A DNA stretch of 64,000 nt from the IMG/VR virus record IMGVR_UViG_3300046507_000447, positions 1,903-65,902 of that record, one strand, 5' to 3'. Positions 11,426 through 49,118 of the stretch are shown piece after piece. How positions within the stretch are numbered: the first letter of the stretch is position 1; each line of letters starts with the position of its first letter. The notes beneath the pieces were generated by a model. The model did not search any database, was not told the origin of the DNA, and worked only from the letters and a program-made list of their open reading frames with translations. Made by a program: the position numbers and the translations under genes. The stretch comes from a virus. Lineage: Duplodnaviria > Caudoviricetes.

Positions 11426-11437
11426 GAGGGCAACAGA

Positions 11438-11869: not shown

Positions 11870-11872
11870 TCC

Positions 11873-13306: not shown

Positions 13307-13315
13307 GGGGCCATC

Positions 13316-13741: not shown

Positions 13742-13752
13742 GGAGAAGATCC

Positions 13753-16143: not shown

Positions 16144-16252
16144 GTTGATAACTCTCTACTAACTGTTGCCTGACTTCTGTGTACTCGGAGCCGCGACTGG
16201 AAGCAATCGCCCGAATGAGCTATGCAGGTTTTATAGTTAACGGAGCGGCCAG

Positions 16253-17482
16253 ATGAACCTCACAACCCTATATGCGGCGATCGGCCAGAGCGATTTCAAG
16301 AAGTCGCTTTCGCCCGCCCAGCGCAACACGATCGAGCTGATCGTCAACCAGTGGAAAGTCTTCGGCTACCCCTCCGACAACGCCCTAGCCTATGTCCTGG
16401 CGACTGCGCAGTGGGAGACGGCCAACAAGATGGTCCCCGTGCGCGAGACCCTGGCATCCACCGACAAGAGCGCGATGGCGATCCTCGAACGCGACTTCAA
16501 GGCCGGCAAGCTGAAGTGGGTCAAGACGCCTTACTGGCGCACGGGTTACTTCGGTCGCGGTATGGTGCAGCTCACCCACGAGGACAACTACAGCGGGCCG
16601 ATCCGCGACGCCGTGATGGAGACGTTCGGCAAGGCATTCGATATCCACAAGGATCCATCGCTGCTCATCACGAACCCCGACATCTCGTGCTTTGTCCTGA
16701 TCGAGGGCATGACAAAAGGTGTCACCCTCAAGGCGGACTTCACGCCGTGGGCGTTGGAGACGTTCATCAACGACAAAAAGGTGGACTATCTCGGCGCGCG
16801 GAAGACCGTGAACCCCGGCGACAAGAGCAGCGTCACCAAGATCAAGGATCTCGCGTTGCTCTGGGAGGAGGCTATCCGGGAAGCCCGTCGTGATGACGAC
16901 GAGCAATTCCTGGGACCGGCAGGCCCCGACGTGAAGGGCCAGGGTCTCTATGACGGGCGCGTGCATTCCGAGGTTCGTGACGTCCAGGAGTTGCTCGCCA
17001 AGAAGCTCTACCCGGTCGGCCAGATCGACGGCAAGTGGGGCGACCGAACGGCAGCAGCGGTTCTCGCGTTCCGCCGCAAGAACGGACTACCACTCACCGA
17101 CGAGGACATCACCGATAAGGACTTCCTGGCGGCCCTGGCCGTGGGTGATGAGATGGAGCTTCCGACCTCCCGTACCGAGGCGACGGCGGCGGATCTGCGC
17201 GCGCAGGGGTCCAAGACGATCGCGATAGCCGATAAGCTCAAGTGGGTCGGCTCGCTCGCGATCGGCGGCGGCGGTCTGCAAGCGGTAAACTCTGGGCTCG
17301 ATACCGTCGATCAGGTGAACACCACGCTCTCGCGGGTCCACGATGTTACCGCGACGGTAGTGAAATTCCTCCAGGACAACTTCCTCTTCCTGGCGGCCGG
17401 CATCGGTGCGGTCGTGGTGTGGCAGGCGATCCGGATCACCAAGGCGAAGGTCCAGGCTCACCGTGAAGGGAAGGACGTCTAA
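16253..17482 (+). CDS. Endolysin: GH19-like domain, peptidoglycan-binding domain, C-terminal hydrophobic segments
   Basis: LAYVLATAQWET, YFGRGMVQLT..NY; VRDVQ.LL....IDGKWG.RT..AV.AF....GL. Confidence 0.85.
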   Translation: MNLTTLYAAIGQSDFKKSLSPAQRNTIELIVNQWKVFGYPSDNALAYVLATAQWETANKMVPVRETLASTDKSAMAILERDFKAGKLKWVKTPYWRTGYFGRGMVQLTHEDNYSGPIRDAVMETFGKAFDIHKDPSLLITNPDISCFVLIEGMTKGVTLKADFTPWALETFINDKKVDYLGARKTVNPGDKSSVTKIKDLALLWEEAIREARRDDDEQFLGPAGPDVKGQGLYDGRVHSEVRDVQELLAKKLYPVGQIDGKWGDRTAAAVLAFRRKNGLPLTDEDITDKDFLAALAVGDEMELPTSRTEATAADLRAQGSKTIAIADKLKWVGSLAIGGGGLQAVNSGLDTVDQVNTTLSRVHDVTATVVKFLQDNFLFLAAGIGAVVVWQAIRITKAKVQAHREGKDV

Positions 17483-17832
17483 TGCCCTTGTTCCTCACTG
17501 GACTCTGGACGTTCGTCAAGTCGCCGCTCGGGCTCGGCCTGGGCGCGGCTTTCGCTATCCTGGTTTTCGTCCAGGTCCAACGCAACGACGCGGCCGACGG
17601 TGCTGCGGCCGAGTGCAAGGCCGACGTATATCAGCAACAGCTAAAGGATCTACAGACCAAGCTCGATGCTGCCCAGGCTCTCGCCAAGACGAACCAGGAC
17701 AAGGCCGATCAAACCGAAGCGGCCCGTGCAGCGGCCCAGAAAGAAGCCGATGATCTCAAAGCGACACTTCCACCGGACGGCAATCCTCCTATCCCTCCCG
17801 CTGTTCGTCATCGGGTGCAACAGCTCAAATGA
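17482..17832 (+). CDS. Inner-membrane spanin (Rz-like)
   Basis: N-terminal TM helix plus coiled coil, after the endolysin. Confidence 0.75.
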   Translation: MPLFLTGLWTFVKSPLGLGLGAAFAILVFVQVQRNDAADGAAAECKADVYQQQLKDLQTKLDAAQALAKTNQDKADQTEAARAAAQKEADDLKATLPPDGNPPIPPAVRHRVQQLK

Positions 17833-18043
17833 CAAGCCGGCCATCGTCGCGACCGTCACGCCGATCCCCGATCTCGCTGCGACAACGGCTCTGCCTTGCC
17901 GGGATCCTGGTGTGGCTGCGAATTACGGAGACGCCCTCGTGGACACTCGTGTCTGGGGCCTTTGCGAGCGCGGCAGGCACATGGATACCGTCGCCGCATA
18001 CAAAAACGTACAGAGAACATTTGGGGGTCGGCAGGCCCCTTGA
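17750..18043 (+). CDS. Outer-membrane spanin lipoprotein (Rz1-like)
   Basis: Overlaps Rz in another frame; signal and lipobox ILLSLPLFVIGC; Pro/Cys-containing. Confidence 0.7.
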   Translation: MISKRHFHRTAILLSLPLFVIGCNSSNDKPAIVATVTPIPDLAATTALPCRDPGVAANYGDALVDTRVWGLCERGRHMDTVAAYKNVQRTFGGRQAP

Positions 18044-18184
18044 CCGGTAACGCGCACGCGCGTATCAGCAACTTGTTTTGGTGTGTACTCGCTAGATGTA
18101 GCCATTGTGCGGCAAGCCCCAACCCGTCAATTTATGGTCGCCAAGGTAGTAACTCCGATTCGGCACGGCCGAAGGTAGGTTTAA

Positions 18185-18466
18185 ATGTTCTGGGGTAGGG
18201 GCGATAGTTCCAAGCTCTCGACCGAAGAACGGGCTCTCTACGACAACCTGCGCCGGCTAGAAGAAACCGGACACATTGTCGGGACGACTCCGGATCAGAC
18301 GGCGACGGCGTTTAGCGCGATCAAGTTTTTCGGAAGCGTTACCGCCACCTCGGGGATGATCGCCGGGGCGCGGAACGTCATGTACTGGATCGGCGGCTTG
18401 GCCTTTTTCTGGTGGACTTCCAAGGATACGATCGTCGCGTTCCTGCGGCATGTGGTGCAGCCATGA
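18185..18466 (+). CDS. Putative holin-like membrane protein
   Basis: 93 aa with a C-terminal hydrophobic segment, in the lysis cluster. Confidence 0.45.
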   Translation: MFWGRGDSSKLSTEERALYDNLRRLEETGHIVGTTPDQTATAFSAIKFFGSVTATSGMIAGARNVMYWIGGLAFFWWTSKDTIVAFLRHVVQP

Positions 18467-18954
18467 GAGGGATGGGTGTCTTGCGCTGGTTTAAATATCG
18501 CATGATCGAGCTGGCCGTCGCCCTGCCTATCCTGGCTTGCTCGCTCTATCTGATCCAGAACATCCAGGACCAGCGGAAGGTCGGCGTGCCCGCGAGCGCG
18601 TGGTTCTCTGTCACCGACATCTTCGTTCCGGACCACGCTTCGGGCGAGGATGTCACCATGACCTATGACCGGACGATCAAGGAAGAGGTTCGAGGCTTCT
18701 GGTTGATCGAGGCGCAGCGGCAGGACAATGCGTCCGGTTCGTTTGTTTCGGAATGCTCGGCCTCGGGGATCAGCGAATACGAGCCCCAGGATTACATCCC
18801 AAACAATCAGGTGAAGTGGTCCTGGTTCATGGGCGACAAATGCCTGGAGCTTCCTGGCGGCACGTACCGGCTCCGTGGATCCTGGGTCTTGCGTCGCCCG
18901 AGCTGGCCCGACAAGAAGATCGCGACCTATTCGAACCTCTTCAAGATCTACTAG
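18463..18954 (+). CDS. Membrane-anchored periplasmic protein
   Basis: N-terminal TM, two Cys, beta-rich domain; ATGA overlap with the previous gene. Confidence 0.55.
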   Translation: MRGMGVLRWFKYRMIELAVALPILACSLYLIQNIQDQRKVGVPASAWFSVTDIFVPDHASGEDVTMTYDRTIKEEVRGFWLIEAQRQDNASGSFVSECSASGISEYEPQDYIPNNQVKWSWFMGDKCLELPGGTYRLRGSWVLRRPSWPDKKIATYSNLFKIY

Positions 18955-19732: not shown

Positions 19733-19976
19733 CTTTCCAATCCCCTATGCCACCTGTCTTTTTCGGACGGATCCGCAGCGCATAGGCGAACTGTTTCGGC
19801 AGGGGTCTATTGAACTGCCGCCTCTCGCCGGGATCCGCGTTGAAGATACCCAGCAGGGAGGAAATAGCGCCGTTCGGTCTGACGCCGACGCGGTAGACGA
19901 GGCGCGGGTTTCCCAGCGCCAGGACATGGTCATGCGTGCGCCGGTTGACGGCCCAATACAGAACGCTCGTGCTCAT
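19716..19976 (-). CDS. Hypothetical protein
   Basis: ATGA overlap, GGAGG RBS. Confidence 0.6.
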   Translation of the reverse strand: MSTSVLYWAVNRRTHDHVLALGNPRLVYRVGVRPNGAISSLLGIFNADPGERRQFNRPLPKQFAYALRIRPKKTGGIGDWKDEHRH

Positions 19977-20638
19977 ACAACCTCCATAAGCTCCGGGAAG
20001 AGGAGCGGATCGTTAAACTTGTCCTTCTCGTCACCATGCACAGACCAGACGCCGTGCTGCTGCCGGCCGAACATCTCGAAATAGGGACCGTCCACAAGGC
20101 GCTCGATCAGCGGAAAGATCTCATCCGGCTTGCGGCTGTGCTCGCGGCGCTTGGCGGCGATGAAACGCGGCACGTCCTTGCCGATGCGCTTCGGCCGGCC
20201 GACGGTATTCAGGAAGCATCGTTCCGCGTCCTGCTCTGTCTCGCCGAAGTATGTCTCGTAAACCATTTCCGCGTTCGCCCTGGTCCAGTGGCCCGTGCCC
20301 TGGAAGAACGTCTTGCCGTCCTTGTTGAGCTTGCCCCAGGTGAACCCGACCGTCTTGAATTTGAAGCCCCAGGCCTTCACAACTTCAAGGGCCAACTCGA
20401 CATGGCTGTCGATGATCCACATGAATAGCACGCAATCCTTAGCGGCGAGGTCTTGGACAGGGAGCGCCTTCAGCTCGGGGATCGTCATGGTTTTGTAGTG
20501 GCGATCGGGCGACCGGCCCATGCCCTTGGCCGAGCGCGTGAGGTATTTCCAGGGCGGATCGCAGACGATCACCCGATACTTTTTGTAGCCGAACCCCTTG
20601 AACGGGCCGTCCTGGATCAGTTGCGTTTTCCCCTGCAC
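19973..20638 (-). CDS. MT-A70 family adenine methyltransferase
   Basis: DPPW, HY.TM, LFMW, WGF..KT..F.W.K, G.G.WTR.N.E and REHSRKP motifs. Confidence 0.9.
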   Translation of the reverse strand: MQGKTQLIQDGPFKGFGYKKYRVIVCDPPWKYLTRSAKGMGRSPDRHYKTMTIPELKALPVQDLAAKDCVLFMWIIDSHVELALEVVKAWGFKFKTVGFTWGKLNKDGKTFFQGTGHWTRANAEMVYETYFGETEQDAERCFLNTVGRPKRIGKDVPRFIAAKRREHSRKPDEIFPLIERLVDGPYFEMFGRQQHGVWSVHGDEKDKFNDPLLFPELMEVV

Positions 20639-21432: not shown

Positions 21433-21989
21433 TAGACCACGCTCATGTCGTCATCGTCTTCGGCAGGCGATGCGGTTTCTGTCTTCGGTTCCTCCTCGTG
21501 GATGACCCCGAGATGCGGGTCGATCGAGAAGGCACCCTCTCGCTTGAAAGCGTACCACTCGTCGCGCTTGACCTTCTTGACGCGAGGGTCATTCGGCTGG
21601 ACCGCGCCGCCCTTGATCTGGAAGACCGCGTTGGCGTTCGGCCAGTAATAGAATGCGTTCTGGCTGAAGGTCTTGTCGCCGAAGACGATCGGCGAGAGAT
21701 CCGGCCCCGCGCCCTTTACCGGTTCGGCGGCGTCCGTCTCTTCGGTCGTGAGCATCAGGTGGCCGGCGAAACCGTCGGCGTCATCGAACAGCTTGCCGGA
21801 TGCCGGGTGCGTGACCGTGCCGTCCGGATGGCGTATCGCCTCCTTGCTGGTGACGCCGGAACGGGCGGTCGCGAACAGCGGGAAGACCATGTTGTTCTGG
21901 ATGTATTGCCAGCCCACGACGGCGGCGATAGGCATGCCGTCCCCGTCGATTAGCGTTGTCCCAGGCGCGGCCGGGATTGTCGTCGTCAT
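21432..21989 (-). CDS. Hypothetical protein
   Basis: Tiles the operon. Confidence 0.65.
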   Translation of the reverse strand: MTTTIPAAPGTTLIDGDGMPIAAVVGWQYIQNNMVFPLFATARSGVTSKEAIRHPDGTVTHPASGKLFDDADGFAGHLMLTTEETDAAEPVKGAGPDLSPIVFGDKTFSQNAFYYWPNANAVFQIKGGAVQPNDPRVKKVKRDEWYAFKREGAFSIDPHLGVIHEEEPKTETASPAEDDDDMSVV

Positions 21990-22450
21990 GCGGCTTCTCC
22001 GTATGCTTCATTGATGAGGAGGGTGATCGCCTTCTTGATCCGCACAACGTATTTGGTCTGGTCGTTTTCCTGCGACCGGACCCAGCTATCGAGCGTCTTC
22101 AGAATGAGCGTTTCGGTGAGAGGCAAGCGGTTCGCCTCGCAATAGGTTTCGATGGAGATGCGGGGATCGTCCAGGGCGTCAAGCTGCACGCCGAGCGGTG
22201 CGACCAGGGCTCCGTTCATGACGCTGAAGGCGCGGAGCTTCCAGATCGGTTGGACCAGTTCAACGCGGAGATCCACGGTGTGCGCGGCCTTCTCCAGGTC
22301 GGCCTTGCCGCCCTTCGAACGGTGGCGGCTGACATATTTCAAGATCGTATGGGCGCAGGAGTCGTAGCCGTTGATCATTGTGAATTGCATCGGCTGAACG
22401 GCGGAATTCTTGTAGTGGTTGCCGCCTACCTGAACCGAGAGAGCTGTCAT
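21986..22450 (-). CDS. DUF3310-like protein
   Basis: QVGGNHYK...QP..F...KYVSR...KGG.ADLEKA. Confidence 0.75.
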   Translation of the reverse strand: MTALSVQVGGNHYKNSAVQPMQFTMINGYDSCAHTILKYVSRHRSKGGKADLEKAAHTVDLRVELVQPIWKLRAFSVMNGALVAPLGVQLDALDDPRISIETYCEANRLPLTETLILKTLDSWVRSQENDQTKYVVRIKKAITLLINEAYGEAA

Positions 22451-29955: not shown

Positions 29956-30813
29956 TTATCCACCATCGGCCTTCCCCAGGATCGCGCGCAGAAGACGGGT
30001 GTACCAGCCGTCGGTGCTTTCTTGCGGCCCCCACTCGCCGCCACCGTCCACGGTCTGCGGTTCCATCTCGACAATGGACAGCATTTCCTCGATCTCTTCT
30101 CGATTGAAGCCGGCCGGGAGTGGGGGTTCCACCCTTGCCTGGGGTGATGGTACTGCCTTGAGCAAGCTCAAGGCGTATTCCAGCCTCCCGTCACGGGCGT
30201 AGTCGTTGATGTCCATCTCCCCCATGGCGCGGCTATCCTCCTTCCAAGGATCGCCGTCATGCGTGTAGGCCAGGTAATCTTGAATCGTTTCGACGGCGGC
30301 CGCTAACGCGCTGCGAAGCATGTCGGCTTCAGCGTCATCGGAAGCACGGCAGACGTCGGCCGCCATCACATGTGAAACGGGTGGGGGCTCTTCCATTTTC
30401 GCCATCCGGTTCAGCGCGCCGCGTATCGAGGCGATGCGTCGCGGGTGGGTCTCGCCGCCTTCCTCGATCCACGAGAGCTGGCAATGCGCGATCTGGGCTT
30501 CCTCGGCCGGCGTTAGCGGGCCGACGAGCGTGCTGGTCTCGGCTTCAAGCTGGCGCTTGGACCACGTCAGACCGACATCTCGATAGCCGTATTTCTCGAT
30601 CGCCCTTTTCATGGCGTGGAGAATGTAAAACGGTCTGTTGATATCGGAAAATCCCCCCAGCTCGTTGCCCTGAAGCTCGGCCCAGAGGATCTCGACATCA
30701 GCCAGGATCGACTTACGTTCCTCGTCGGTGAACAGGATTGGGTACGGTCGATCGGTCATCGGTTCTCTCTTTTCGAAATGGCGAATTTTCAACCCAGAAC
30801 AACCAGAAGTCAT
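29956..30813 (-). CDS. Hypothetical mosaic protein
   Basis: Long ORF in operon orientation; likely start MTDRPY. Confidence 0.6.
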   Translation of the reverse strand: MTSGCSGLKIRHFEKREPMTDRPYPILFTDEERKSILADVEILWAELQGNELGGFSDINRPFYILHAMKRAIEKYGYRDVGLTWSKRQLEAETSTLVGPLTPAEEAQIAHCQLSWIEEGGETHPRRIASIRGALNRMAKMEEPPPVSHVMAADVCRASDDAEADMLRSALAAAVETIQDYLAYTHDGDPWKEDSRAMGEMDINDYARDGRLEYALSLLKAVPSPQARVEPPLPAGFNREEIEEMLSIVEMEPQTVDGGGEWGPQESTDGWYTRLLRAILGKADGG

Positions 30814-30903
30814 AACGCGGCTCTTCGGCCGGCGTCAGCTTGGCGTCCTCGCGAATGCGGTATCGTTCGGCGTCACTCAGGTTTTTGGCCACGGGAGTCG
30901 GCA

Positions 30904-31176
30904 TCAGAACATCTCCTCGTAGATGTGCCAGACGAACGGCAACATGATAACCGAGCCGATATGCTGCGTGGCGGCAGCGGGGATAGGCTGGCCTGTCCCG
31001 ACGATGTAGAACGTGCGCGTGGTACGGTCCTGCTCTTCAGTATCGACTTCGAACCAGAGAGAGATCTTTTCCGAATACCTCGTGTCCTGGCCCAGGTTGA
31101 TGAACTTCGCGCCGCGCGGAAGTTCGAGCTGGAAAGCGTGCGCGAGTTCGACAGGGTATTTGAAGATCGTTCTCAT
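30904..31176 (-). CDS. Hypothetical phage protein
   Basis: MRTIFKYP...LPRGA...LW.EVD...GTG....HIGS...VWHIYE. Confidence 0.7.
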   Translation of the reverse strand: MRTIFKYPVELAHAFQLELPRGAKFINLGQDTRYSEKISLWFEVDTEEQDRTTRTFYIVGTGQPIPAAATQHIGSVIMLPFVWHIYEEMF

Positions 31177-31730
31177 GCGAGGTTCTCATGCGCGTCGAGC
31201 GCGGCTTGCAGGTTCAAGAACACCTGATCGTCGCCACCCTTCTCGACCTTCCACGCGCGGATCTCGTTGATTGCTGCCTGGAGCAGCGAGCGCGTCACCA
31301 GGATCGACGGATCGTGGGGTTCGCTTCCCTCGGCCATGGCCTTGAGCGTGTCATGCGAAGGGCCGACGAGCTTGTCCGGATCGCCGCCGAACGCACGGAT
31401 GACCTGCCGCCAAACATCGTCAAGAGTGCGACGATGGACATTGCGCAATGGCCGGTTCTGGACCTGCTCATTCCAGCGCTGGACGGCCCAATCGAGCACA
31501 GATATCGGCGGTTGCGGCCATTCGCCGTCATCCGTCTCCACACGATACCGGATCCAGCCCGTGTCATCGATCTCGATATGCGTCACACGTTCTTTGTTGA
31601 GCAGCTCGCCGGCTCGCGGCAAAACCTCCAGCGCAAAGCGGCGAACCGTCATCTGCCCGGTAAAACCGCGCGGCATTTCATCGACACGGGTCATTTGTTG
31701 GTCGGCAACGGCCCAGGCTGTCTTGGTCAT
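31173..31730 (-). CDS. Hypothetical protein
   Basis: ATGA coupling on both sides. Confidence 0.65.
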   Translation of the reverse strand: MTKTAWAVADQQMTRVDEMPRGFTGQMTVRRFALEVLPRAGELLNKERVTHIEIDDTGWIRYRVETDDGEWPQPPISVLDWAVQRWNEQVQNRPLRNVHRRTLDDVWRQVIRAFGGDPDKLVGPSHDTLKAMAEGSEPHDPSILVTRSLLQAAINEIRAWKVEKGGDDQVFLNLQAALDAHENLA

Positions 31731-32125
31731 GCGAGTTTCCTTTCGAGACGGTCGGAGAGGGGCTTCAAGGCGTTGTCCCAGATCTCAAGTGCTAGAGGAT
31801 TGTCGGAATGGTCGGCGATCACGTCGTAACCGTCATTGCCGTAGATGAGCCGGAACCAGCCGCACGCGCCAATTTCGTCGGGGAGGTGGACGGACAGCAC
31901 GTCCTCCTCTGTCGAATACATCGCTTTGAGGATGTGGTGATAGCGCTGCGAGCGCGTAACGACGGTTTCCTCGCCGTCGTTGATCGAAACCTGGAGTCCG
32001 CGCGCTATACAGGCTTTGATGAGACAGGAGACCATGCGACGCTCGGCGTCGATACGGCGGGCGAGAGCCCAGGCCTTGTCCTTTTGCGCGGCTTTATAGG
32101 CGCGCTGGAAGTCGTTCATACTCAT
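31727..32125 (-). CDS. Hypothetical phage protein
   Basis: DGEE...LIYGNDGYDVIAD motif; first gene after the promoter at 32165-32193. Confidence 0.7.
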   Translation of the reverse strand: MSMNDFQRAYKAAQKDKAWALARRIDAERRMVSCLIKACIARGLQVSINDGEETVVTRSQRYHHILKAMYSTEEDVLSVHLPDEIGACGWFRLIYGNDGYDVIADHSDNPLALEIWDNALKPLSDRLERKLA

Positions 32126-32164
32126 TCGACTAGAGCCTTTCGAATGTCGTTGGATGCAGCTCCG

Positions 32165-32203
32165 GTTCTAGGCAACAGATAGTTGGGTGTCAACTGATAA
32201 TTG
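32165..32203 (-). promoter_or_regulatory. Leftward sigma70-like promoter with two CAAC-N5-GTTG-type operators
   Basis: TTGACA-17nt-TAGAAC; operators at 32173-32185 and 32191-32203 (second has one mismatch). Confidence 0.65.
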
Positions 32204-32205
32204 GG

Positions 32206-32234
32206 CTTGCAAACAGCTTTCCACACGCCTATAT
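32206..32234 (+). promoter_or_regulatory. Rightward rhizobial-type sigma70 promoter
   Basis: CTTGCA-17nt-CTATAT, close to the rhizobial CTTGAC-N17-CTATAT consensus. Confidence 0.7.
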
Positions 32235-32240
32235 CCATTC

Positions 32241-32638
32241 TCGTTGCAGCCGCAATCTGTGACAAGAATGACCTTTCGGGGATAACGGCTCAGGGCTCCA
32301 ACCTGGGCCGTTTCCTTTTTATAGAAGCTGCCGCTCGGGTAAGAGTATCTGCTTCCGTACCCGGAAACCCTCGCGCCTTTGACCTGGAGCGAGGGTTTTT
32401 GCTTTTTATAGAGGTCGATCCTAGCATGGAAGGGAGCGACTCTCTCATGCAGAAATGTAGCGTCGATCGAGGGTCATCCGCCACCCAATGCATGGGGCGG
32501 TTGGACGGGAACGGCAGCATGGCGGGTTCGATCCCCGTCTGCCCCCTGGGGCAGCGCCAGTCGGAGGCATGCAGCTCTCACGAGGAGCAACACACGGACG
32601 CCTTAAGGCCCTGCACCTGATCAGTGCGGGGCTTTTTG
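32241..32638 (+). ncRNA. Putative structured non-coding RNA unit containing a tRNA-like domain
   Basis: Own promoter and terminator, opposite strand to flanking genes, dense hairpins, T-loop GGTTCGATCCC, no convincing CDS. Confidence 0.55.
32608..32637 (+). terminator. Intrinsic terminator
   Basis: GCCCTGCAC-7nt-GTGCGGGGC followed by TTTTT. Confidence 0.75.
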
Positions 32639-32734
32639 CTATCGACGGTTTCGCCAGATGTAGAGAGCGGCGGCAAGCGCGCAGATGGCCGGCCACACGA
32701 AAAGGCAGACGACGAGGATCTCTCTATCGCCCAT
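32639..32734 (-). CDS. 31-aa single-TM peptide (not in the ORF track)
   Basis: MGDREILVVCLFVWPAICALAAALYIWRNRR*; overlaps the upstream gene end and stops at the terminator. Confidence 0.5.
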   Translation of the reverse strand: MGDREILVVCLFVWPAICALAAALYIWRNRR

Positions 32735-32954
32735 GCCACCCCGGCCAAATGTCGTCGGCGCTTTTGCCGGCCGCCTCGTATCCTCGGATGTAGTCGGCGA
32801 TGCCCGTCAGACCGATCTCCCCGCCGCATATGACGCATTTGCATTTCATGCCGAGGGTGACAGGCGAGGACAGGAATTCATGGCGCGGGCAGGCGTCCAG
32901 GAGAGCCCGGTTATCGGTCACACGCTGCCAGAGTCCGTCTGGGATCCTGGTCAT
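32724..32954 (-). CDS. Small zinc-binding hypothetical protein
   Basis: C..H...C..CGG. Confidence 0.6.
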   Translation of the reverse strand: MTRIPDGLWQRVTDNRALLDACPRHEFLSSPVTLGMKCKCVICGGEIGLTGIADYIRGYEAAGKSADDIWPGWHGR

Positions 32955-33184
32955 TGAACCGTGTGATCGTTGACGCCGGGGATCTTATCCAGCTCGAAAT
33001 ACATTTTGCTGACGGGATCCTGCGTGATGAGCGTGGCCGGGTGCGCGGTGAAGCGCATGTTCGAGCGGCGGACGGTGCCCATGCTGGTGAAGATCCAGAA
33101 GACCCCGTATTCGATGATGTCGATCGCGTGCGCCGGCCCGGTATCGAGCCGCATGGTGGCGCGCCTGGGCCGCTCATCGCTCAT
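32951..33184 (-). CDS. Hypothetical protein
   Basis: ATGA coupling. Confidence 0.55.
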   Translation of the reverse strand: MSDERPRRATMRLDTGPAHAIDIIEYGVFWIFTSMGTVRRSNMRFTAHPATLITQDPVSKMYFELDKIPGVNDHTVQ

Positions 33185-33438
33185 GCTGCGGACTGCTGAC
33201 GTTCGGTCACACGGATTTGCCCGTAGACCTTTGGCATGAACACGCCGTCGCGCTTCTCCTGCGCCCAGCCGGCCGTGATGTCATAGGCGATGCAGTTGGG
33301 AATATGGACCTCGTCGCAGAAGACCTTGTCCACCTTCAGGCAGGCCTCGCGATCGTAGAAGGGGGAGAGCTTGGATGCGGAGAGCCTTGTCGGCAGGGAG
33401 CCGCTCAGGTTTGGCGATTTTGAAAAATCCGATCTCAT
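33181..33438 (-). CDS. Hypothetical protein
   Basis: ATGA coupling. Confidence 0.55.
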   Translation of the reverse strand: MRSDFSKSPNLSGSLPTRLSASKLSPFYDREACLKVDKVFCDEVHIPNCIAYDITAGWAQEKRDGVFMPKVYGQIRVTERQQSAA

Positions 33439-33569
33439 TCGCTCAATTTCCTATTTTGGAAAGGGGCGGCAATCGATTGGACCATTTTCGTTTTGGCAAC
33501 TTCACTGGTTTATCGATTGCCGCTGGACGTGCGATGCGTGATCGCCCGCCTGACGCGAAAGGATTAATC

Positions 33570-34073
33570 TCAAGGAGCGTCGAGCGCAACCTGGATCTGG
33601 GCAGTTTCGCACGCCGGGTTTTCCGGCAGGGCGTTATCCACACGATCGTTCACCCAGGCATTGCGGCAAACTTCCGTGGCGGCGAGCTTGAGCTGCTCGA
33701 CCATGCGTGTTTTGTCCGGAGCATCCATGGTCTGCTGGACGCTGCCCACGTTCATTTTTTCAACATCAATGAGGGCTTGATAGACGACCCTGGCGCAGCG
33801 ATCGAGCTTCTTCCCATCGGCAAGAGCGAGGTTGGCGAAGCAATCGGAGTTGGCAGTCGTGCGCCGAGAAGCTGGCTCGGGGAGCTGGGCGGCGATATCT
33901 GTGACAACGGTAGCAACATGATCATTCCCTGCGCTGACGACGCGAAGCTCGCGATCGACCGGTTGGACGGAAGCCCAGAGTTCGCTCGGGCTGGAATAGG
34001 TGGATATCAGGCCGAAGGTCATGGTGGCAAGAACTGGTGCAGCGACCAGGGCGATGACGCGATGCATAGGCAT
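33570..34073 (-). CDS. Membrane-anchored or exported Cys-containing protein
   Basis: GGAGG RBS before MPMHRVIALVAAPVLATMTFGLI; four Cys in the soluble part. Confidence 0.6.
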   Translation of the reverse strand: MPMHRVIALVAAPVLATMTFGLISTYSSPSELWASVQPVDRELRVVSAGNDHVATVVTDIAAQLPEPASRRTTANSDCFANLALADGKKLDRCARVVYQALIDVEKMNVGSVQQTMDAPDKTRMVEQLKLAATEVCRNAWVNDRVDNALPENPACETAQIQVALDAP

Positions 34074-34461
34074 CCTCCGTTCGAATAGCGGCGCAAGCGA
34101 CTCGCGCCTCAAATTCGCCTTGCCGCTCGGATTACCGCGTGTGTGATCTGCTGGCAATGCCATCTGGTGCCCCTCTCATGAGCATTCACAGCGTCTGTCT
34201 GTGTACTCAATTCTGGCCGGCGCTTTTCGAAAACGGGAACCGGCGAGGTTGCCAGGGCGACGGCCGTTCAAAATCGGGAACCGGCGAGCTTTTTAGGGGG
34301 AAGCCCAAAAAACGGCCGATCCCTGTCCAGGCAATAAACGATTATGCGCGCAAAAAGTTTCCTGGTCGAGGGGAACGAAAATTTCCCCGCGCGAAAATCT
34401 TTCCCGCTCGCGTCACGTTATAACATTACGTTACGTTATAAAGTTACATTGCCCTGGTAGT

Positions 34462-34490
34462 GAAAAGCCCGGAAGGCGATCCGGGCTTTC
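34462..34490 (-). terminator. Intrinsic terminator closing the terminal early operon
   Basis: AAAGCCCGGA-loop-TCCGGGCTTTTC directly after the stop at 34496. Confidence 0.7.
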
Positions 34491-34495
34491 GATTT

Positions 34496-34726
34496 CTATT
34501 CCTTGTCGCGACCCGTGTATTTGTCGAAACGTTCTGACGTTCGCGGCATAGCCATGCGGCAAGCCCATATCAGGCCGCCCCCGAATATCGCTCCTGGTAA
34601 GCCGTTTGCTAGATACTGCCAGACTGTGACGCCTATACAGCCGATCATTGCGAGCCGTGCCACATGGAATTGGAGAAGCCAATTGGCGATATCGAGCCCG
34701 ATTTCATCATGCTCGTGTTTCTTCAT
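34496..34726 (-). CDS. Small membrane protein
   Basis: Two hydrophobic segments; ATGA-coupled start MKKHEH. Confidence 0.55.
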   Translation of the reverse strand: MKKHEHDEIGLDIANWLLQFHVARLAMIGCIGVTVWQYLANGLPGAIFGGGLIWACRMAMPRTSERFDKYTGRDKE

Positions 34727-34971
34727 GCCTTGCGCTCGATTAGGAAAAGATAGGTCTGACAATCGGCTTGCCACGGGTATTCCTGCCAAGCGTCATGCAT
34801 CTTGCGGAACCCCGCGTCTTCGCACGAGACGCAAGAAGCCGACATGACGCCTTGCCGCTTACGGAATGCGTTCACCTGGACAACGTCGTCGCTATCCAGG
34901 CCCGAACTATCCCCGTTGACAAAATGCGAGGCCCAATAGGACGGCGCGACTAGTTCAAGCTTATCAAACAT
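34723..34971 (-). CDS. Hypothetical early protein
   Basis: AAGGAG RBS; P..WAS..VNGD.SGL motif. Confidence 0.7.
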   Translation of the reverse strand: MFDKLELVAPSYWASHFVNGDSSGLDSDDVVQVNAFRKRQGVMSASCVSCEDAGFRKMHDAWQEYPWQADCQTYLFLIERKA

Positions 34972-34994
34972 CGGTTTTTGCTCCTTACGTTAAA

Positions 34995-35033
34995 CCGGAA
35001 AAGCGCCGCCGGTTGCCCGTGGCGCTTTCCTTG
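34995..35033 (-). repeat. Intergenic GCAA-tetraloop hairpin, copy 1
   Basis: Near-identical to 35807-35845. Confidence 0.75.
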
Positions 35034-39480: not shown

Positions 39481-39720
39481 TTAGTTGGCCTGGACGCAAT
39501 AAGCGCCCTGGACAAGCTCGCTGGCATAGGTGGCTGTATTCATGCCTTCCATGCAATCGTCAAAGGTAAGGTCATAGTCGAGCGTCTGGATATCGCCGTT
39601 GTTATCGACCCAATCAAGGTTGTAGGTCGTATCGTCTGCCATGACCTGCGAGGCCATGTAGGCCATGCCAGAGAGGGCAAGGGTAGCAGACATGATAGTC
39701 GTCATAATCAAGGTACGCAT
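39481..39720 (-). CDS. Small exported protein, first early gene
   Basis: Signal-peptide-like N-terminus, GGAG RBS, LTFDDC. Confidence 0.55.
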   Translation of the reverse strand: MRTLIMTTIMSATLALSGMAYMASQVMADDTTYNLDWVDNNGDIQTLDYDLTFDDCMEGMNTATYASELVQGAYCVQAN

Positions 39721-40158
39721 GAGCTAGCTCCAATAGCTGTTGCAACCCCCTATATGGGGAGCCCTTGTCTTAGGCCTTTGTCAATGTGATTGCAACCGTA
39801 ATCAGTGATCAATGGTAAACAAAGTTGCAAGCGCTCGTGCTTGCCGTACCCATGCCGAATGGCGCTCAGAGTCTAGCGAATAGAGGGGCTTAACCCCTAC
39901 TCCCTGGTAGCGCTTGTTTAGGGCTTTACGTGAATTCGTTTTAGCTAATGCAACCATGTCCACCCATGGCCGGTCGCCGGTATGGGGGTATGACCTATGC
40001 AAGGCGTGCATGTCCTATAGGGGTATGAGCGTATGCCGGTATGGCCATGTAACGCTATAACATCAATACGTTAGGCCTACTAATAGAGGTCATGAGCACG
40101 AGTAGAGGCAAGCGAGGGGCGAATGACGCACAGACGCGAGGTTGACCAGTGGTCGCTT

Positions 40159-40208
40159 GGGTCCCTCCCCTAGGTTGCAGGCTGACAGGGGGGCGCGGAG
40201 CCCTCGGT
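40159..40208 (+). other. Candidate cos site (cosQ-like GGGTCCC plus 12-nt cosN GGGGCGCGGAGC)
   Basis: 40190-40201 matches the Chi cohesive end as I recall it (GGTGCGCAGAGC) at 10/12; AGG/CCT flanks; same position relative to primase as in Chi. Confidence 0.65.
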
Positions 40209-40253
40209 CGTCCACTCGATTCCGGATTTTCCCAGGCCCCGACAGCCGTTATT

Positions 40254-40880
40254 GTTACCCATATGGGTAACTATACTCGGTACATATTCGACCAGGATAT
40301 CCTTTTGCCCCCAGGGTAACGTAATAACGTAACAATGTGAGGAAACACTGAAATACCGGGGCTAAATGACCTCGATTTGCGGATTTGCCGTTTTCCGGGT
40401 TTTCTGGGTAAATCGACAGTCATCACCCGTAATCGTCACTGTTACCGGTAATCGTCAATGTTACGGGTGTGAGGGGTGTGACGACCGTGACAGCCCCTAT
40501 TTTAGCTTGTCTTATGAAAAACCTAATGATTTCAATATGTAAGACCCCCTAAGACAGGTGAGACAGCTATTCTATATAAAGGAATATTTTAGAAACCATA
40601 ATAAAGAGCGCGACCTGTATACGTAAGCATTACCAGCACACGTAAACATTACGAGCACGCGAGGCACGAGGCCAAGCGGTGGGCATAAGGCGTGCGTAGC
40701 GCGTAGCGCCAATATACTTTAGGGAAAAGCTTGACTTCTGTCTCACTGGCTCAGCGGTATGAAAAACCCAGGATTCCCAGGGCCTTCGGCCTGAGACCCA
40801 CGGTGAGACAAGATTTAGCCCGTCTCAGCAGGAATCAAGAAGGCCGGGTTTCCCCGGCCATTCTAACGTTTACCCGTAAT
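40254..40880. repeat. Repeat-rich non-coding region (cosB and/or replication origin candidate)
   Basis: 18-bp palindrome 40254-40271; 19-bp tandem pairs at 40429-40466 and 40621-40658; TGAGAC/GTCTCA repeats; AT-rich core. Confidence 0.6.
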
Positions 40881-40895
40881 GATCCCGCGTGCTCG

Positions 40896-44503: not shown

Positions 44504-44932
44504 ATGGCAACCACGGAAAATGTAGGGTTCGAAGCTGCGGCCCTGACGCTCGCGAAGGCGCTGGACGCTCACAGCAAAGCGCTGAACGATTTCGTCGCCA
44601 ACTCTGGCGGCAAGCCTTCGACCGGCTCGACGGCCGGCGCAGCAACCGGCACGGGCACCAAGGCGACAGGCGCGGGCACCAAGAAAAAGGGTCCGACGAT
44701 TGACGACATCCAGGCGGCTTTCGGCGACTACATGAAGGTCGGCGACGTCGAAGTCCGCAAGGAGCGCAAGGGGCACGTCGTCAACATTGCCGGCAAGTTC
44801 GGTGCGGAACGCGCGACGCTCATCGATCCGAAGCATTTCGAAGAAGCCCTTGCCCTGCTCAAGGCCTACCAGGACGGCGAGGATCCGTTCGCTGAAGACG
44901 GTGAAGCCGGCGAAGAAGAAAGCCCGGTCTAA
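44504..44932 (+). CDS. Hypothetical protein at the head of the replication operon
   Basis: AAGGA RBS; position before DUF2800. Confidence 0.75.
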   Translation: MATTENVGFEAAALTLAKALDAHSKALNDFVANSGGKPSTGSTAGAATGTGTKATGAGTKKKGPTIDDIQAAFGDYMKVGDVEVRKERKGHVVNIAGKFGAERATLIDPKHFEEALALLKAYQDGEDPFAEDGEAGEEESPV

Positions 44933-44939
44933 GCCACCC

Positions 44940-46217
44940 ATGACCGATCAGGCGCAAGAGCATTCAGTTCGCTCGCCGTCGTCAGCGCATCGCTGGCGGC
45001 GGTGCGCCGGATCAATCAATGCCGAACGCGGTCTGCCGGATCGCGTCGGTATCGAGGCCGCCGAGGGCACGCTGTTCCACGAACACGCGGAAGTCTGCGT
45101 TGTCACGGGGCTCGATCCCCAGGCGATGCTTCCTGGCGTCGAATGCGTCGTGAGCGGCCACAAGGTCGTGTATAACGACGAGATGGCGATGCACCTACAA
45201 GGTGGCATCAACTACATTTACAACCGCATGGAGACCGCGACCTGGGAGACGAAAAACCCGGTCCTGATGGTCGAGCAGCGGGTGAAGATCGAGCCCTGGA
45301 CGCTGGAGCCCGGTGGCTTCGGTACGTCCGACCTTTGCATGATCCTGGCGGATGAAAAGCGGATCGTCGTCTTCGATTGGAAGTACGGCTTGATCGCTGT
45401 CAGCCCTTATAAGAACGACCAGCTCATGCTCTACGCCCTGGGCTGCTGGGAGAGCTTGGCGTCCACGCATTTTGCCGGCGTTGATCCGTTCGAGATCGAG
45501 GTCGAGCTGACGATCTGGCAACCACGAGTGCCTGGAGCAGGCGGAACGTGGAAAACCACAATGGGAGACTTGCTTCTTGAGGGTGAACAAATCAAGATCG
45601 ACGCGGCGGCGACATACGAGTTTGATGCGCCGCGAACGCCAGGAACGAAACAGTGTCAATACTGCAAAGCCTCGGCGACTTGCGCGGAGCTTGCGCGCTA
45701 CAATTTGGAGCAGTTCTCACTCAGATTTGACGACATTGACGATAGCCTCGAATACGGGATCGAGCTACCGGACCCGGATATATCGAGCTGGACGCCCGAA
45801 CGCCGTGCCTATGTCCTGCTGCACAAAAAGGTTTTCGAGCGTTGGTTTAAGAAGCTCCATGAGGACGCGCTGGTGGCGTTCTCCCAGGGTCAAGACTATC
45901 CGTTCATGAAGATGGTCACGGGCAAATCTGGCGACCGGTATTACCGGGAAAGCCAGAAGGAAACCGTGATCAAGATCCTCACCGAAGAGTTGAAGGGCAA
46001 GAAGATCTCGCCCGTCATCCACGAGCCGATCAGCCCCGCGCAGGCGCAGAAGGCCCTCGGCAAGAAGAAGTACGATCTGCTCCTAAAGGAGTATGTCGAG
46101 ATACCTCCGGGCAAACCAATCCTGGTCCCCGAAACAGATCCGCGAATTGCCCTCCCGAACCTGGGCGAGCAGTTGGCAGAAGCCCTCAATGGCCTAGAAG
46201 ACGACGGAGACGAATAA
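44940..46217 (+). CDS. DUF2800 Cas4-like exonuclease
   Basis: HS..SPSSAHRW..C.GS; GT..H; GFGTSD; D.KYG; QL.LYA; QPR; C.YC.A...C. Confidence 0.88.
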   Translation: MTDQAQEHSVRSPSSAHRWRRCAGSINAERGLPDRVGIEAAEGTLFHEHAEVCVVTGLDPQAMLPGVECVVSGHKVVYNDEMAMHLQGGINYIYNRMETATWETKNPVLMVEQRVKIEPWTLEPGGFGTSDLCMILADEKRIVVFDWKYGLIAVSPYKNDQLMLYALGCWESLASTHFAGVDPFEIEVELTIWQPRVPGAGGTWKTTMGDLLLEGEQIKIDAAATYEFDAPRTPGTKQCQYCKASATCAELARYNLEQFSLRFDDIDDSLEYGIELPDPDISSWTPERRAYVLLHKKVFERWFKKLHEDALVAFSQGQDYPFMKMVTGKSGDRYYRESQKETVIKILTEELKGKKISPVIHEPISPAQAQKALGKKKYDLLLKEYVEIPPGKPILVPETDPRIALPNLGEQLAEALNGLEDDGDE

Positions 46218-46876
46218 TGGCGAAAGAAAACGACAGCCTCGGGATGGTGACGCTCTTGAACGTGCGTCTCGGTTTCCCGTTCCTATTCCAGCGCGGCGAG
46301 CCCCAGAAGCGCGACGACGGCACGATGACGGAGGGCAACTTCCGCGCCTCGGGCATCATGTACACGACGCCGAAATACGCGGCGCAGACCAAGACAAACC
46401 TCGCCAATCTGAAGAAGGCGCGTCTCGCCGTGATGGCCGCGAAGTTCGGCGAGAACCAAGCCAAATGGCCGAAGATCAAACCGGAAAAGCTTTGCACGCG
46501 CGACGGCAATCTCGAAAATTGGGATGGCTTCCAGGATAGCTGGTATTGCTCTGCAAGCGAGCAGACGCAGCCGCAGCTCTTCAGCCGTGTCCGCGACCCC
46601 AAGAACCCGAAGCTCTGGCTCCCGGCCACCCGCGAGCTGTTGTATGCCGGCTGCATGGTCTCCATGATCGTCCAGCTCTGGGTCCAGGACAACAAGCACG
46701 GCCAGCGCGTCAACGCCAACCTGAAGGCTGTGCAGTTCTTCGCGCATAACGAACACTTCGCTGGCTCGGCTCCTATCGATCCGACCCAGGCCTTCACCGA
46801 AATCGAAGAAGAAGATCCCGGCACGATCGGCGGGGAATTCGGCACGGACGACGATGACGACGACTCCGTAGTTTGA
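46217..46876 (+). CDS. DUF2815 ssDNA-binding protein
   Basis: NVRL.FP.LF; RDG; YAGC.V; L.AVQF; acidic tail. Confidence 0.88.
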   Translation: MAKENDSLGMVTLLNVRLGFPFLFQRGEPQKRDDGTMTEGNFRASGIMYTTPKYAAQTKTNLANLKKARLAVMAAKFGENQAKWPKIKPEKLCTRDGNLENWDGFQDSWYCSASEQTQPQLFSRVRDPKNPKLWLPATRELLYAGCMVSMIVQLWVQDNKHGQRVNANLKAVQFFAHNEHFAGSAPIDPTQAFTEIEEEDPGTIGGEFGTDDDDDDSVV

Positions 46877-46889
46877 TCGGATCTGCGGC

Positions 46890-49115: not shown

Positions 49116-49118
49116 CCC

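Follow-up and report, generated by a model that had tools for sequence, protein, structure and literature searches.

What is a tRNA-like sequence, with its parts in circularly permuted order, doing in a phage that carries neither tRNA genes nor a gene for Ro60? The sequence belongs to a virulent-type siphophage from soil with direct terminal repeats, whose record (65,902 bp) is complete and of which a stretch of 64,000 nucleotides, hereafter the window, was analysed. The genome has a G+C content of 60%, contains frequent long open frames and encodes its own replication genes (DNA polymerase, primase-helicase). The element lies on the plus strand, in a 600-nt non-coding gap within a block of minus-strand genes. 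This block is predicted to consist of early genes, to which the element would be antisense, and a putative plus-strand RNA would be able to pair along its whole length with the intergenic part of the minus-strand operon. A search for Ro60/TROVE gave no match at E <= 1 in the complete record, while control genomes did match; the absence of a Ro60 gene, initially noted for the window, holds for the whole 65,902 bp. ARAGORN and the Rfam model found no tRNA gene in the phage, ARAGORN detected no tmRNA, and no integrase was found in the complete record with PF00589 and PF00239 (tyrosine and serine recombinases).

The stretch 32513-32576 (+) opens with a stem strand, continues with a T arm, an acceptor hairpin closed by a loop and a D arm of reduced size, and finishes with the strand that completes the stem (Table 1). 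Each of these pieces was found where the initial annotation had placed it. The T-acceptor-D topology that it had proposed, with the ends at the position of the anticodon stem, is correct; it is the order of the Rfam YrlA consensus and of the YrlA RNAs as presented in the available text of Chen et al. (2014, PMC4201824). In the closing stem, seven of the eight positions are paired (one A.A mismatch, one G.T). The junctions are reduced to one nucleotide each, C between the acceptor and the D stem and G between the closing and the T stem. The acceptor has 6 bp in the uncut form; with its loop opened by a cut between 32547 and 32548, it reaches 7 bp (CTGCCCC/GGGGCAG). In the D-arm loop, equivalents of A14, G18, G19 and A21 are present. 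By sequence, TTCGATC and AGTCGGA agree with the UUCRANY T loop and the two D-loop guanines taken as the mark of a tRNA elbow, and the T-loop and D-loop consensus occurs on the plus strand only. A fully paired T-arm stem is found at three sites of the window, the two others being on the minus strand (49951-49967 and 53705-53721); that of the element is the sole one with four G-C pairs and the sole one outside predicted genes. Inspection of the sequence revealed no CCA, no G73 and no closed anticodon loop. Hence, the initial statement that there is no anticodon loop and no CCA holds for CCA and for a closed loop, but the heptamer CTCTCAC does resemble an anticodon loop.

Table 1. Plus-strand features in and around the tRNA-like element (positions in the window).
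Feature	Positions	Strand	Remarks
Candidate promoter CTTGCA-17 nt-CTATAT	32206-32234	+	10/12 versus CTTGAC-N17-CTATAT; weak evidence
Unit A	32236-32322	+	5' hairpin and terminator-like hairpin T1 (32284-32312) with T run
Unit B	32323-32432	+	Terminator-like hairpin T2 (arms 32365-32377 and 32386-32398, then T run)
Leader of conserved segment	32433-32512	+	Contains GGGGCGG (32494-32500)
Closing stem, 5' strand GGCAGCAT	32513-32520	+	Anticodon-stem position; followed by G at 32521
T arm GCGGG-TTCGATC-CCCGT	32522-32538	+	5 pairs, the first G.T; loop fits TTCRANY
Closed acceptor hairpin CTGCCC-CCTG-GGGCAG	32539-32554	+	Followed by C at 32555
Reduced D arm GCC-AGTCGGA-GGC	32556-32568	+	3-bp stem, 7-nt loop
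Closing stem, 3' strand ATGCAGCT	32569-32576	+	Pairs with 32513-32520
Anticodon-loop-like heptamer CTCTCAC	32577-32583	+	Not enclosed by a stem
Intrinsic terminator T3	32608-32637	+	9-bp G+C-rich stem, 7-nt loop, TTTTT

At the level of sequence, the tRNA-Asp ancestry of the element is clear. A 21-mer taken from the T arm and the acceptor 3' strand, of which it covers the greater part, is matched exactly only once among 185,579 species genomes; this sole match lies, in register, in a tRNA-Asp(GTC) gene of a metagenome-assembled bacterium (G001; gene at L028 1402-1477, 68.0 bits on the tRNA model). Over the T arm and the acceptor 3' strand, 24 nt are identical; the acceptor 5' strand does not differ either, so that both acceptor strands match. 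Moreover, the D loop is of the AGTCGG type, as in tRNA-Asp, and the heptamer equals the tRNA-Asp anticodon loop CTGTCAC at six of seven positions. Compared with this genuine tRNA-Asp, whose acceptor stem and T arm are identical and whose D loop and anticodon-loop motif are related, the element is permuted, its acceptor is closed, the anticodon arm is absent, and the D arm and variable region are shortened. The tRNA-Asp has the D arm GCTCAGCTTGGTTAGAGT. Relative to the canonical D arm, the stem GCTC/GAGC has become GCC/GGC: both partners of one pair are gone and the helix is still perfect. No TROVE gene was found in G001, to which the flanks of the element gave short chance matches only.

The frequency with which such an arrangement arises by chance was estimated with a liberal descriptor on 300 simulated 64-kb sequences. 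A T arm alone occurs 1.28 times per simulated sequence, and a T arm with an adjacent hairpin of at least 6 bp 0.057 times. Given these two, a D-like arm together with a 7-of-8 closing stem was obtained in 1,210 of 200,000 simulated flanks (0.006), a D-like arm by itself in 7.3% of them. The combined expectation for the whole element is about 3x10^-4 per genome with this liberal descriptor, and a chance origin is unlikely. It should be noted that the descriptor is also matched by adjacent tRNA genes with spacers of 2-4 nt: the other 179 kb of loci gave four full matches, all in L014, L015 and L023, the first two of which contain dense series of tRNA-type T arms.

With YrlA (RF02553), the element shares the order T arm, loop-closed acceptor, D arm, and the exit of the ends through the anticodon-stem position. 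Its T arm is near the consensus GCGGGuUCGAgaCCCGC; both RNAs have a D loop of the G18/G19 type and lack CCA and anticodon. As a family, YrlA RNAs are bound by Ro60/Rsr and modified by TruB and DusA. However, the Rfam YrlA model gives the element 14.5 bits (E = 7.3) against a gathering score of 69, with an alignment restricted to positions 31-62 of 114 (32 positions). This cut-off is conservative, since the Ro60-linked L020 scores 39.5 and seven Ro60-linked phage modules are without match at the gathering score (in L019, L020 and L023, which have 39 listed open frames, 16 of these were scanned with Pfam). According to the available text of Chen et al. (2014, PMC4201824), YrlA carries near its 5' end a Ro60/Rsr-binding motif, GNCGAAN0-1G (CGAA), and YrlA genes have a Ro60/TROVE gene on their own strand no more than about 4 kb away. 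Neither GNCGAAN0-1G nor CGAA occurs in 32400-32645 (+), and the element, unlike YrlA, stands alone in a phage without tRNA genes and without Ro60. The core shared by YrlA and tRNA comprises, in the available text of Wang et al. (2018, 10.1101/312249), the U8-A14-A21, 9-12-23 and 13-22-46 triples and the Levitt pair. These cannot form as such in the element, because its junctions have 1 nt and nucleotides are missing: 1-nt junctions stand in place of UA (U8/A9) and of the 4-nt variable region, and the D arm has a stem of 3 bp and a loop of 7 nt where YrlA has 4 bp and 9 nt. The likeness to YrlA put forward initially thus stands for module order, but not for membership of the family, against which the score, the absence of Ro60 and the missing CGAA, U8/A9 and variable loop argue.

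The comparison with covariance models suggested at that stage leaves the element below every cut-off, for YrlA, tRNA and permuted tmRNA alike. The tRNA model (RF00005) has no match in 32100-32900 even at E <= 10, nor does ARAGORN report one, so that the element does not align as an ordinary tRNA, the decayed form of which the initial annotation had itself raised as an objection. The two-piece permuted tmRNA (RF04321) has in common with the element the order T arm, acceptor 3' strand, acceptor 5' strand. The score on this model is 13.7 bits, with a cut-off of 47; G3-C70 replaces G3.U70, CCA and an intervening segment are lacking, no tag frame is convincing, and ARAGORN calls no tmRNA. Y-RNA modules linked to Ro60 were found in nine IMG/VR phages of ~75-95 kb (L037, L038, L042, L043, L045, L046, L049, L052 and L061), all nine records encoding a TROVE protein; none of the seven modules scanned reaches the Rfam YrlA gathering score. 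In these modules, the T arm is of the tRNA-Asp type (GCGGGTTCGAGTCCCGT), the 7-bp acceptor is closed and the D loop reads AGTCGG. The acceptor cap has 4 nt (GAAA, TTCG, GCAA or CGTG) in seven of the nine; L037 and L052 have a 6-bp acceptor stem (with one mismatch in L037) and a 6-nt loop. Unlike the element, they possess a canonical D arm TAGCTCAGTCGGTAGAGC. AGGTC precedes their T arm (TGGTC in L061), and their flanks, with long variable arms, do not align with the element. Other phages also carry this design without Ro60: 11 closed-acceptor modules were found in the viral contigs, two of which lie in 100%-complete records without a TROVE gene.

Is the locus organised as a transcription unit? 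The rhizobial sigma-70 promoter consensus is CTTGAC-N17-CTATAT, and scoring with it gave nine promoter-like sites in the window against 4.2 expected, three of the nine being intergenic. No promoter adjoining the element was found; the sole upstream candidate precedes both T1 and T2. Unit A is predicted to fold at -38.2 kcal/mol (z = -5.11; none of 200 shuffles was as stable), and a promoter-like site of the minus strand (32265-32237) lies partly over its 5' hairpin. Unit B (z = -3.35) contains the inverted repeat I2, and a 15-nt direct repeat is found at 32311 and 32398. Past the module, at a distance of 32 nt, T3 is one of two sites in 64 kb, both strands considered, that pass a strict terminator rule; its pair probabilities are 0.95-1.0 and the z-score of 32577-32645 is -2.99. 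In all, three plus-strand terminator-like hairpins stand within 360 nt of an otherwise minus-strand block.

The element is retained in a related soil phage (a contig of run X2, from another study). There, 32433-32729 differs at 5 of 297 nt (98.3% identity), against 163 of 3,287 nt (95.0% identity) for all other aligned pieces together (Fisher p = 0.006; p = 0.10 against the adjacent piece alone). A contig of run X3 covers 32449-32599 with two differences. Upstream of the conserved segment, the relative is devoid of 32323-32432 (110 nt, 32322 being joined to 32433); downstream, it is devoid of 32730-32950, a gene being absent on that side. Another piece, 33997-34333, shows 98.8% identity, and since this is equally high, phage mosaicism could explain the higher identity of 32433-32729. 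BLAST, pattern and covariance-model searches found no homologue beyond near-identical relatives and, as a result, there is no covariation. BLAST against a phage collection, with 281 nt and with 16 kb, gave no match. In viral contigs, an exact 25-mer and three degenerate patterns yielded no close homologue, and a fourth degenerate pattern matched only other kinds of module; a metagenome pattern scan returned 16 loci, none of them a homologue. A single-sequence covariance model (R1) had no match in five related whole records and, across the collected loci, scored only modules already fetched by sequence patterns. As for the neighbouring genes, the 132-aa protein has relatives at nine loci (33-48% identity), the 76-aa protein at one (55%), and no related loci were found for the 490-aa and 484-aa proteins. 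At the 10 related loci, neither the T-loop motif nor a tRNA gene within 4 kb was found (0/10 in both cases), and one of the five related whole records has any tRNA gene.

Nearest-neighbour modelling does not favour the cloverleaf. As drawn, it is assigned -25.8 kcal/mol, the minimum free energy of the 64-mer being -29.3, and its probability in the ensemble is 0.0015. When the 213-nt context (32433-32645) is treated by partition function, pairing in the T arm and closing stem has a probability of 0.04-0.05 and that in the acceptor hairpin one of 0.20-0.25. For stretches of 64, 83 and 246 nt, the folding z-scores are -0.39, +1.53 and -0.68, respectively. The predicted fold that competes with the cloverleaf is an extended hairpin. 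An alternative fold had been proposed at the outset: the upstream GGGGCGG can indeed pair with CTGCCCC, but these pairs have a probability of 0.00 in the same 32433-32645 calculation, and the idea that the RNA is possibly switchable is left unsupported.

From these observations, it can be proposed that 32513-32583 is a circularly permuted tRNA-like module derived from tRNA-Asp and that it forms the core of a small non-coding RNA, which would be transcribed from the plus strand, antisense to the surrounding early-gene block, and would end at T3. In such an RNA, the T loop UUCGAUC and the two guanines of the D loop (AGUCGGA) would build a tRNA elbow, the acceptor and T stems would stack into a 12-bp minihelix capped by a small loop, and the RNA ends would exit at the anticodon-stem position. 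The design would be that of YrlA minus the Ro60-docking handle and minus the U8/A9 and variable-loop core. The stretch is probably a free-standing tRNA look-alike without a Ro60 partner or docking site. More precisely, the explanation that we prefer is a YrlA-like mimic of tRNA, orphan and reduced to a minimum, on which RNase P possibly acts; our confidence is evenly divided between its being right and its being wrong. This look-alike could be accepted by host enzymes that read the tRNA elbow and minihelix, and the phage would likely benefit by occupying or recruiting a host tRNA-binding factor early in infection. The decoy role suggested at the outset is, like transcription, fold and cleavage, an inference.

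Since the acceptor can extend to 7 bp, cleavage by RNase P may occur between 32547 and 32548. Such a cut, as in the YrlA of Mycobacterium smegmatis, would expose a tRNA-like 3' end that could be trimmed and could receive CCA, and would also yield a 3' fragment of roughly 90 nt. In the available text of Chen et al. (2014, PMC4201824), M. smegmatis YrlA is cut by RNase P and then receives CCA, an acceptor capable of 7 bp is held responsible for the cleavage, and the majority of YrlA RNAs are uncut. The acceptor of M. smegmatis YrlA also reaches 7 bp; this RNA, unlike the element, is Rsr-bound and encoded beside the Rsr gene, and cleavage of the element is only predicted.

The main alternative is that the element is a functionless relic of two adjacent tRNA-Asp copies, once present in an ancestral phage or a host fragment, that lost their outer halves, which left the 3' half of the first beside the 5' half of the second; the apparent cloverleaf would then be a mere vestige of the duplication. 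We regard this as doubtful, though deserving serious attention. The tRNA-Asp ancestry fits such an origin, as do the continuation of the 5'-half-like part into the anticodon-loop-like heptamer, the apparently eroded D arm and variable region, the lack of support for the cloverleaf from folding energy, and the existence of closely spaced tRNA genes that satisfy the descriptor (L014, L015, L023). However, tRNA genes are missing from the phage and from the surroundings of the related loci and, with one exception, from the related whole records. The parts retained are exactly those that close a four-way junction; the T arm and acceptor are perfect, yet the flanks bear no trace of the missing halves, and the D stem lost both partners of a pair, not one. 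Moreover, in the relative, with its indels on either side of the segment, conservation of the segment equals or exceeds that of the coding flanks, and the strong terminator T3 lies downstream. An origin of another kind, at the DNA level, would make the tRNA-Asp 3' end an att core or its remnant and the inverted repeat a recombinase-binding feature. Att cores typically consist of an identity running to the 3' end of a tRNA gene, which the 24-nt identity does. Nevertheless, an attachment-site remnant, also raised initially as an objection, is unlikely because the complete record encodes no tyrosine or serine recombinase. The direct terminal repeats and the phage's own DNA polymerase and primase-helicase argue against it as well, and an att core would leave the D-like arm, the closing stem (p = 0.006) and the terminator unexplained; we thus hold a DNA-level site to be very improbable.

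Other explanations grant the locus a product but a different one. In the P4 CI RNA and the P1/P7 C4 RNAs, tRNA-like folds direct maturation by RNase P, and the module could likewise be a processing handle that recruits RNase P, the working part being the ~90-nt 3' fragment (32548-32637), which would base-pair, for instance, with the antisense early mRNA. The 7-bp-capable acceptor stacking on a 5-bp T stem, the cleavage described for M. smegmatis YrlA with such a stem and the full complementarity to the intergenic part of the minus-strand operon are consistent with this role. It seems to us improbable all the same: most YrlA RNAs, as far as the available text goes, are uncut, the loop leaves just 6 bp in the uncut RNA, and no target was identified. 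A protein product is conceivable too, as a 64-codon plus-strand frame (32426-32620), ending inside T3, is open, has AGAGG 11 nt before its ATG and is followed by a terminator after the stop; the likeness to tRNA would then be incidental. This frame, however, scores -0.22 bits per codon, against -0.03 or better in all 16 neighbouring genes scored, and has no homologue among proteins of 35-112 residues. Its start codon and AGAGG fall within the 110 nt missing from the relative, and long open frames are common at 60% G+C. We see very little room for a small protein gene. Finally, permuted tRNA genes exist in a red alga, and in the element the 3' half indeed precedes the 5' half, which is followed by an anticodon-loop-like heptamer, as if the transcript were circularised and re-cut to a working tRNA. 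But the rejoined molecule would be without U8/A9 and most of the variable loop, its anticodon stem would be mismatched, CCA and G73 are absent, and bacteria are not known to possess the splicing endonuclease on which this route depends. We give next to no credence to a true permuted tRNA gene.

If the mimic reading is true, the tRNA-like domain has its own function, and the element, a minimal copy reduced to elbow and acceptor/T minihelix in a small virulent phage devoid of Ro60, is a compact bait for its partner. Should the element instead be a relic, it would illustrate on a small scale how duplicated tRNA genes can give rise to permuted tRNA-like RNAs. In the available texts, Y-RNA-type tRNA mimics are described together with Ro60 (Chen et al., 2014, PMC4201824; Wang et al., 2018, 10.1101/312249), the partner of the YrlA tRNA-like domain is still to be found (Wang et al., 2018), and the Y-RNA survey searched only TROVE-encoding genomes (Chen et al., 2014). 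In the literature searched, which was covered incompletely, there is no report of a Ro-less phage YrlA-like RNA.

A broader reading, which we consider unlikely, would be that virulent phages without tRNA genes and without Ro60 carry stripped-down, Ro-independent mimics, opened by RNase P into a two-piece, CCA-bearing decoy directed against a host tRNA factor. The acceptor/T-arm minihelix would be copied from a bacterial-type tRNA-Asp, which may be that of the host, and the decoy would soak up or mislead a factor acting on tRNA ends or elbows, for example a tRNA-directed defence enzyme. Were this true, the element would form, with Ro-less jumbo-phage modules, a class of orphan viral tRNA decoys apart from Y RNAs.

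The element has the sequence layout of a permuted tRNA-like cloverleaf, in which a T arm, a closed acceptor hairpin and a D-like arm follow one another between the strands of a closing stem. All pieces listed in the initial annotation are in place and the topology it proposed is right: the order is that of the Rfam consensus of YrlA, the Ro60-bound bacterial Y RNA, and is also described for YrlA by Chen et al. (2014). The closing stem pairs at seven of its eight positions, with one A.A mismatch and one G.T. Both loop consensus sequences (T loop, TTCGATC; D loop, AGTCGGA) appear on the + strand only. Fully paired 5-bp stems around a T-loop-like heptamer occur at three sites in the window, among which the T arm of the element alone has four G-C pairs and alone lies outside predicted genes.

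Coordinates of the element, its surroundings and compared modules (window positions, except for L050 and L047)
Feature	Position	Strand	Remark
Closing stem, 5' strand	32513-32520	+	GGCAGCAT
T arm	32522-32538	+	fully paired 5-bp stem
Closed acceptor	32539-32554	+	
D-like arm	32556-32568	+	
Closing stem, 3' strand	32569-32576	+	ATGCAGCT
T-arm-like site	49951-49967	-	fully paired 5-bp stem
T-arm-like site	53705-53721	-	fully paired 5-bp stem
Candidate promoter	32206-32234	+	CTTGCA-17-CTATAT; weak site
T3	32608-32632 plus TTTTT	+	strict terminator rule; pair probability 0.95-1.0
phrog_22565 gene	31727-32125	-	
phrog_9844 gene	32724-32954	-	76 aa
Module of L050 (Ro-less jumbo phage)	4717-4766		among tRNA genes
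Module of L047 (Ro-less jumbo phage)	2287-2336		among tRNA genes

A 21-mer covering most of the T arm and the acceptor 3' strand was searched for in 185,579 species genomes and gave a single match, which lies in register at the 3' end of a gene for tRNA-Asp(GTC); this gene scores 68.0 bits with the tRNA model and adjoins a tRNA-Val gene. This identity extends over 24 nt, and the acceptor 5' strand GGGGCAG is common to both sequences. Moreover, the D loop belongs to the AGTCGG type, which is shared by the D arms, likewise tRNA-Asp-like, of phage Y-RNA modules, and the 7 nt 3' of the closing stem (CTCTCAC) are one substitution away from the anticodon loop of tRNA-Asp (CTGTCAC). The element is thus a tRNA-Asp-like sequence in circularly permuted order; an ordinary decayed tRNA was rejected.

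To estimate the chance expectation, a descriptor kept liberal on purpose was run over 300 simulated sequences of 64 kb, which gave 1.28 T arms and 0.057 T arms with an adjacent hairpin per sequence. When the T arm and hairpin were kept constant, 1,210 of 200,000 simulated flanks (0.006) produced both a D-like arm and a closing stem paired at 7 of 8 positions. The product, about 3x10^-4 per genome, is not negligible over a scan of very many windows and leaves the tRNA-Asp identity out of account. A chance look-alike was rejected on these matches to tRNA-Asp. The initial observation is correct and goes beyond chance.

Membership in the YrlA family could not be upheld. With the Rfam model (RF02553), the element scores 14.5 bits, against 69 needed, over model positions 31-62 only; the GNCGAAN0-1G / CGAA motif was not found in 32400-32645. 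The usual Ro60 gene, noted as missing from the window, is absent from the complete record. YrlA has a UA and a 4-nt variable region where the element has one-nucleotide junctions; in the crystal structure, these nucleotides carry base triples and a Levitt pair (Wang et al., 2018). What appears to be left of the YrlA design is the elbow and the acceptor/T minihelix. By these comparisons, the element would be a stripped-down new form of the YrlA-type design, with putative expression and function.

A pattern built on a tRNA-Asp-type T arm and an AGTCGG D loop matched 25 viral loci, of which 11 were read from their sequences as closed-acceptor modules and the other 14 taken for adjacent tRNA genes or chance. 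Records of nine of the 11 (L037, L038, L042, L043, L045, L046, L049, L052 and L061) encode a protein with TROVE, the Ro60 domain; the acceptor stems of these nine vary between records yet stay paired. The YrlA gathering score was reached by none of the nine closed-acceptor modules scanned, seven TROVE-linked ones included; this subfamily from phages seems to escape the curated model. For a metagenome module located next to a Ro60 vWA protein, the score was 39.5 bits. Since two of the 11 modules (L047 and L050) lie in 100%-complete records (254 kb and 279 kb) without a TROVE gene, as against nine with one, Ro-less copies of the design are present in phages as a minority. The L050 acceptor, CTGCGCC-GCAA-GGGGCAG, shares its 5' strand with that of the present element. 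What sets the latter apart from all of these modules is the reduction of its D arm and junctions and the lack of tRNA genes in its phage. In a further locus (12.5 kb of a 227-kb contig), about 20 tRNA genes are closely packed; the locus also holds a permuted tmRNA at 3861-4135 (91.4 bits) and a T arm followed, 3 nt on, by the start of a tRNA match spanning 171 nt.

The element sits in a gap of about 600 nt (32126-32723) between two minus-strand genes, and the + strand of this gap carries three hairpins (T1, T2 and T3), each followed by a T run. Apart from T3, just one site in the entire window passes the strict terminator rule. Unit A (32236-32322), which contains T1, is very stable (z = -5.1); for unit B, which contains T2, z = -3.35. 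The only + strand promoter-like site found upstream of the element is the candidate promoter, with T1 and T2 in between. The 5' hairpin of unit A (32236-32270), a 13-bp interrupted inverted repeat, overlaps a minus-strand promoter-like site (TTGTCA-17-GAGAAT, 32265-32237) and could be an operator instead of, or besides, an RNA hairpin.

The record itself probably comes from one sequencing run; from three soil runs of another study, assembled contigs of a related phage were compared with window positions 30000-35000. This relative lacks 32323-32432 (unit B) and 32730-32950 (the phrog_9844 gene), contigs of runs X2 and X3 joining 32729 to 32951 with one extra T, and it keeps 32433-32729; the module and T3 are thus retained as a block between two indels. 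Over 32433-32729, the X2 contig shows 5 differences in 297 nt (98.3% identity), compared with 163 in 3,287 nt (95.0%) for the other seven X2 pieces listed (Fisher p = 0.006 versus all other pieces, 0.10 versus the adjacent piece); the X3 contig shows 2 differences over 32449-32599. Because one further piece is 98.8% identical, mosaicism is an alternative account of the higher identity. A 15-nt direct repeat flanks unit B (TTTCCTTTTTATAGA at 32311-32325, TTTGCTTTTTATAGA at 32398-32412). Its copies come after T1 and T2 and the 110 nt between them are missing in the relative, which suggests that a terminator module was duplicated or lost.

Beyond the observed anatomy, ancestry, terminator and retention, we propose, with an even chance of being right, that the + strand yields a small RNA with its 3' end at T3, the core of which would fold into a minimal tRNA-Asp mimic. 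Host enzymes reading the elbow and minihelix should accept this mimic, RNase P may cut it between 32547 and 32548, and the mimic would serve to occupy or recruit a tRNA-binding factor of the host. The cloverleaf is not favoured by energy models (-25.8 kcal/mol versus -29.3 for an extended hairpin pairing the T-loop region with the D-loop region). When 213 nt are folded, the T arm and closing stem pair with probabilities of 0.04-0.05, and the acceptor hairpin and D arm with 0.20-0.29; z-scores of the element are unremarkable. As the same program likewise misses the cloverleaf of the genuine tRNA-Asp, these predictions carry little weight either way, yet lend the cloverleaf no support. The switch to a GGGGCGG-CTGCCCC pairing suggested in the initial annotation has a predicted probability of 0.00 and was not sustained.

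The main rival, which we consider rather unlikely, is that two neighbouring tRNA-Asp copies left a relic without function; tRNA genes that stand side by side with tiny spacers do imitate the permuted layout. Less weight is given to a mere RNase P processing handle and to a true permuted tRNA gene. The same applies to an att remnant, in a complete record where tyrosine and serine recombinases are absent, and to a small protein gene. A 64-codon + strand frame does overlap the element. It scores -0.22 bits per codon, lower than any of the 16 neighbouring genes scored, a homologue search found none, and its start falls in a piece missing from the related phage.

The parent record (65,902 bp, direct terminal repeats, completeness rated 100%), of which the window takes up bases 1903-65902, has neither tRNA nor tmRNA and gives no Rfam match at gathering scores. 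It carries a siphovirus gene set (tape measure, tail, portal, protease, major head protein and terminase) and its own replication genes: family A DNA polymerase, exonuclease, Gp2.5-like SSB, helicase and a VapE-type primase-helicase. For the large terminase, identity to any cultured phage does not exceed 45.5%, the nearest being Synechococcus S-ESS1, Achromobacter AchV4 and Ruegeria and Xylella siphophages. In the composition-based gene list, + strand blocks (12-18954 and 44787-62651) enclose a minus-strand block (18951-44709) of mainly small genes without known role, which also holds an MT-A70 DNA methyltransferase and a DUF3310 protein (19973-20638 and 21986-22450). Upstream of the primase-helicase gene, 39528-40895 (1.37 kb) has short open frames only and two different 19-nt tandem repeats (40425-40468 and 40621-40658), and is a possible iteron-containing origin of replication.
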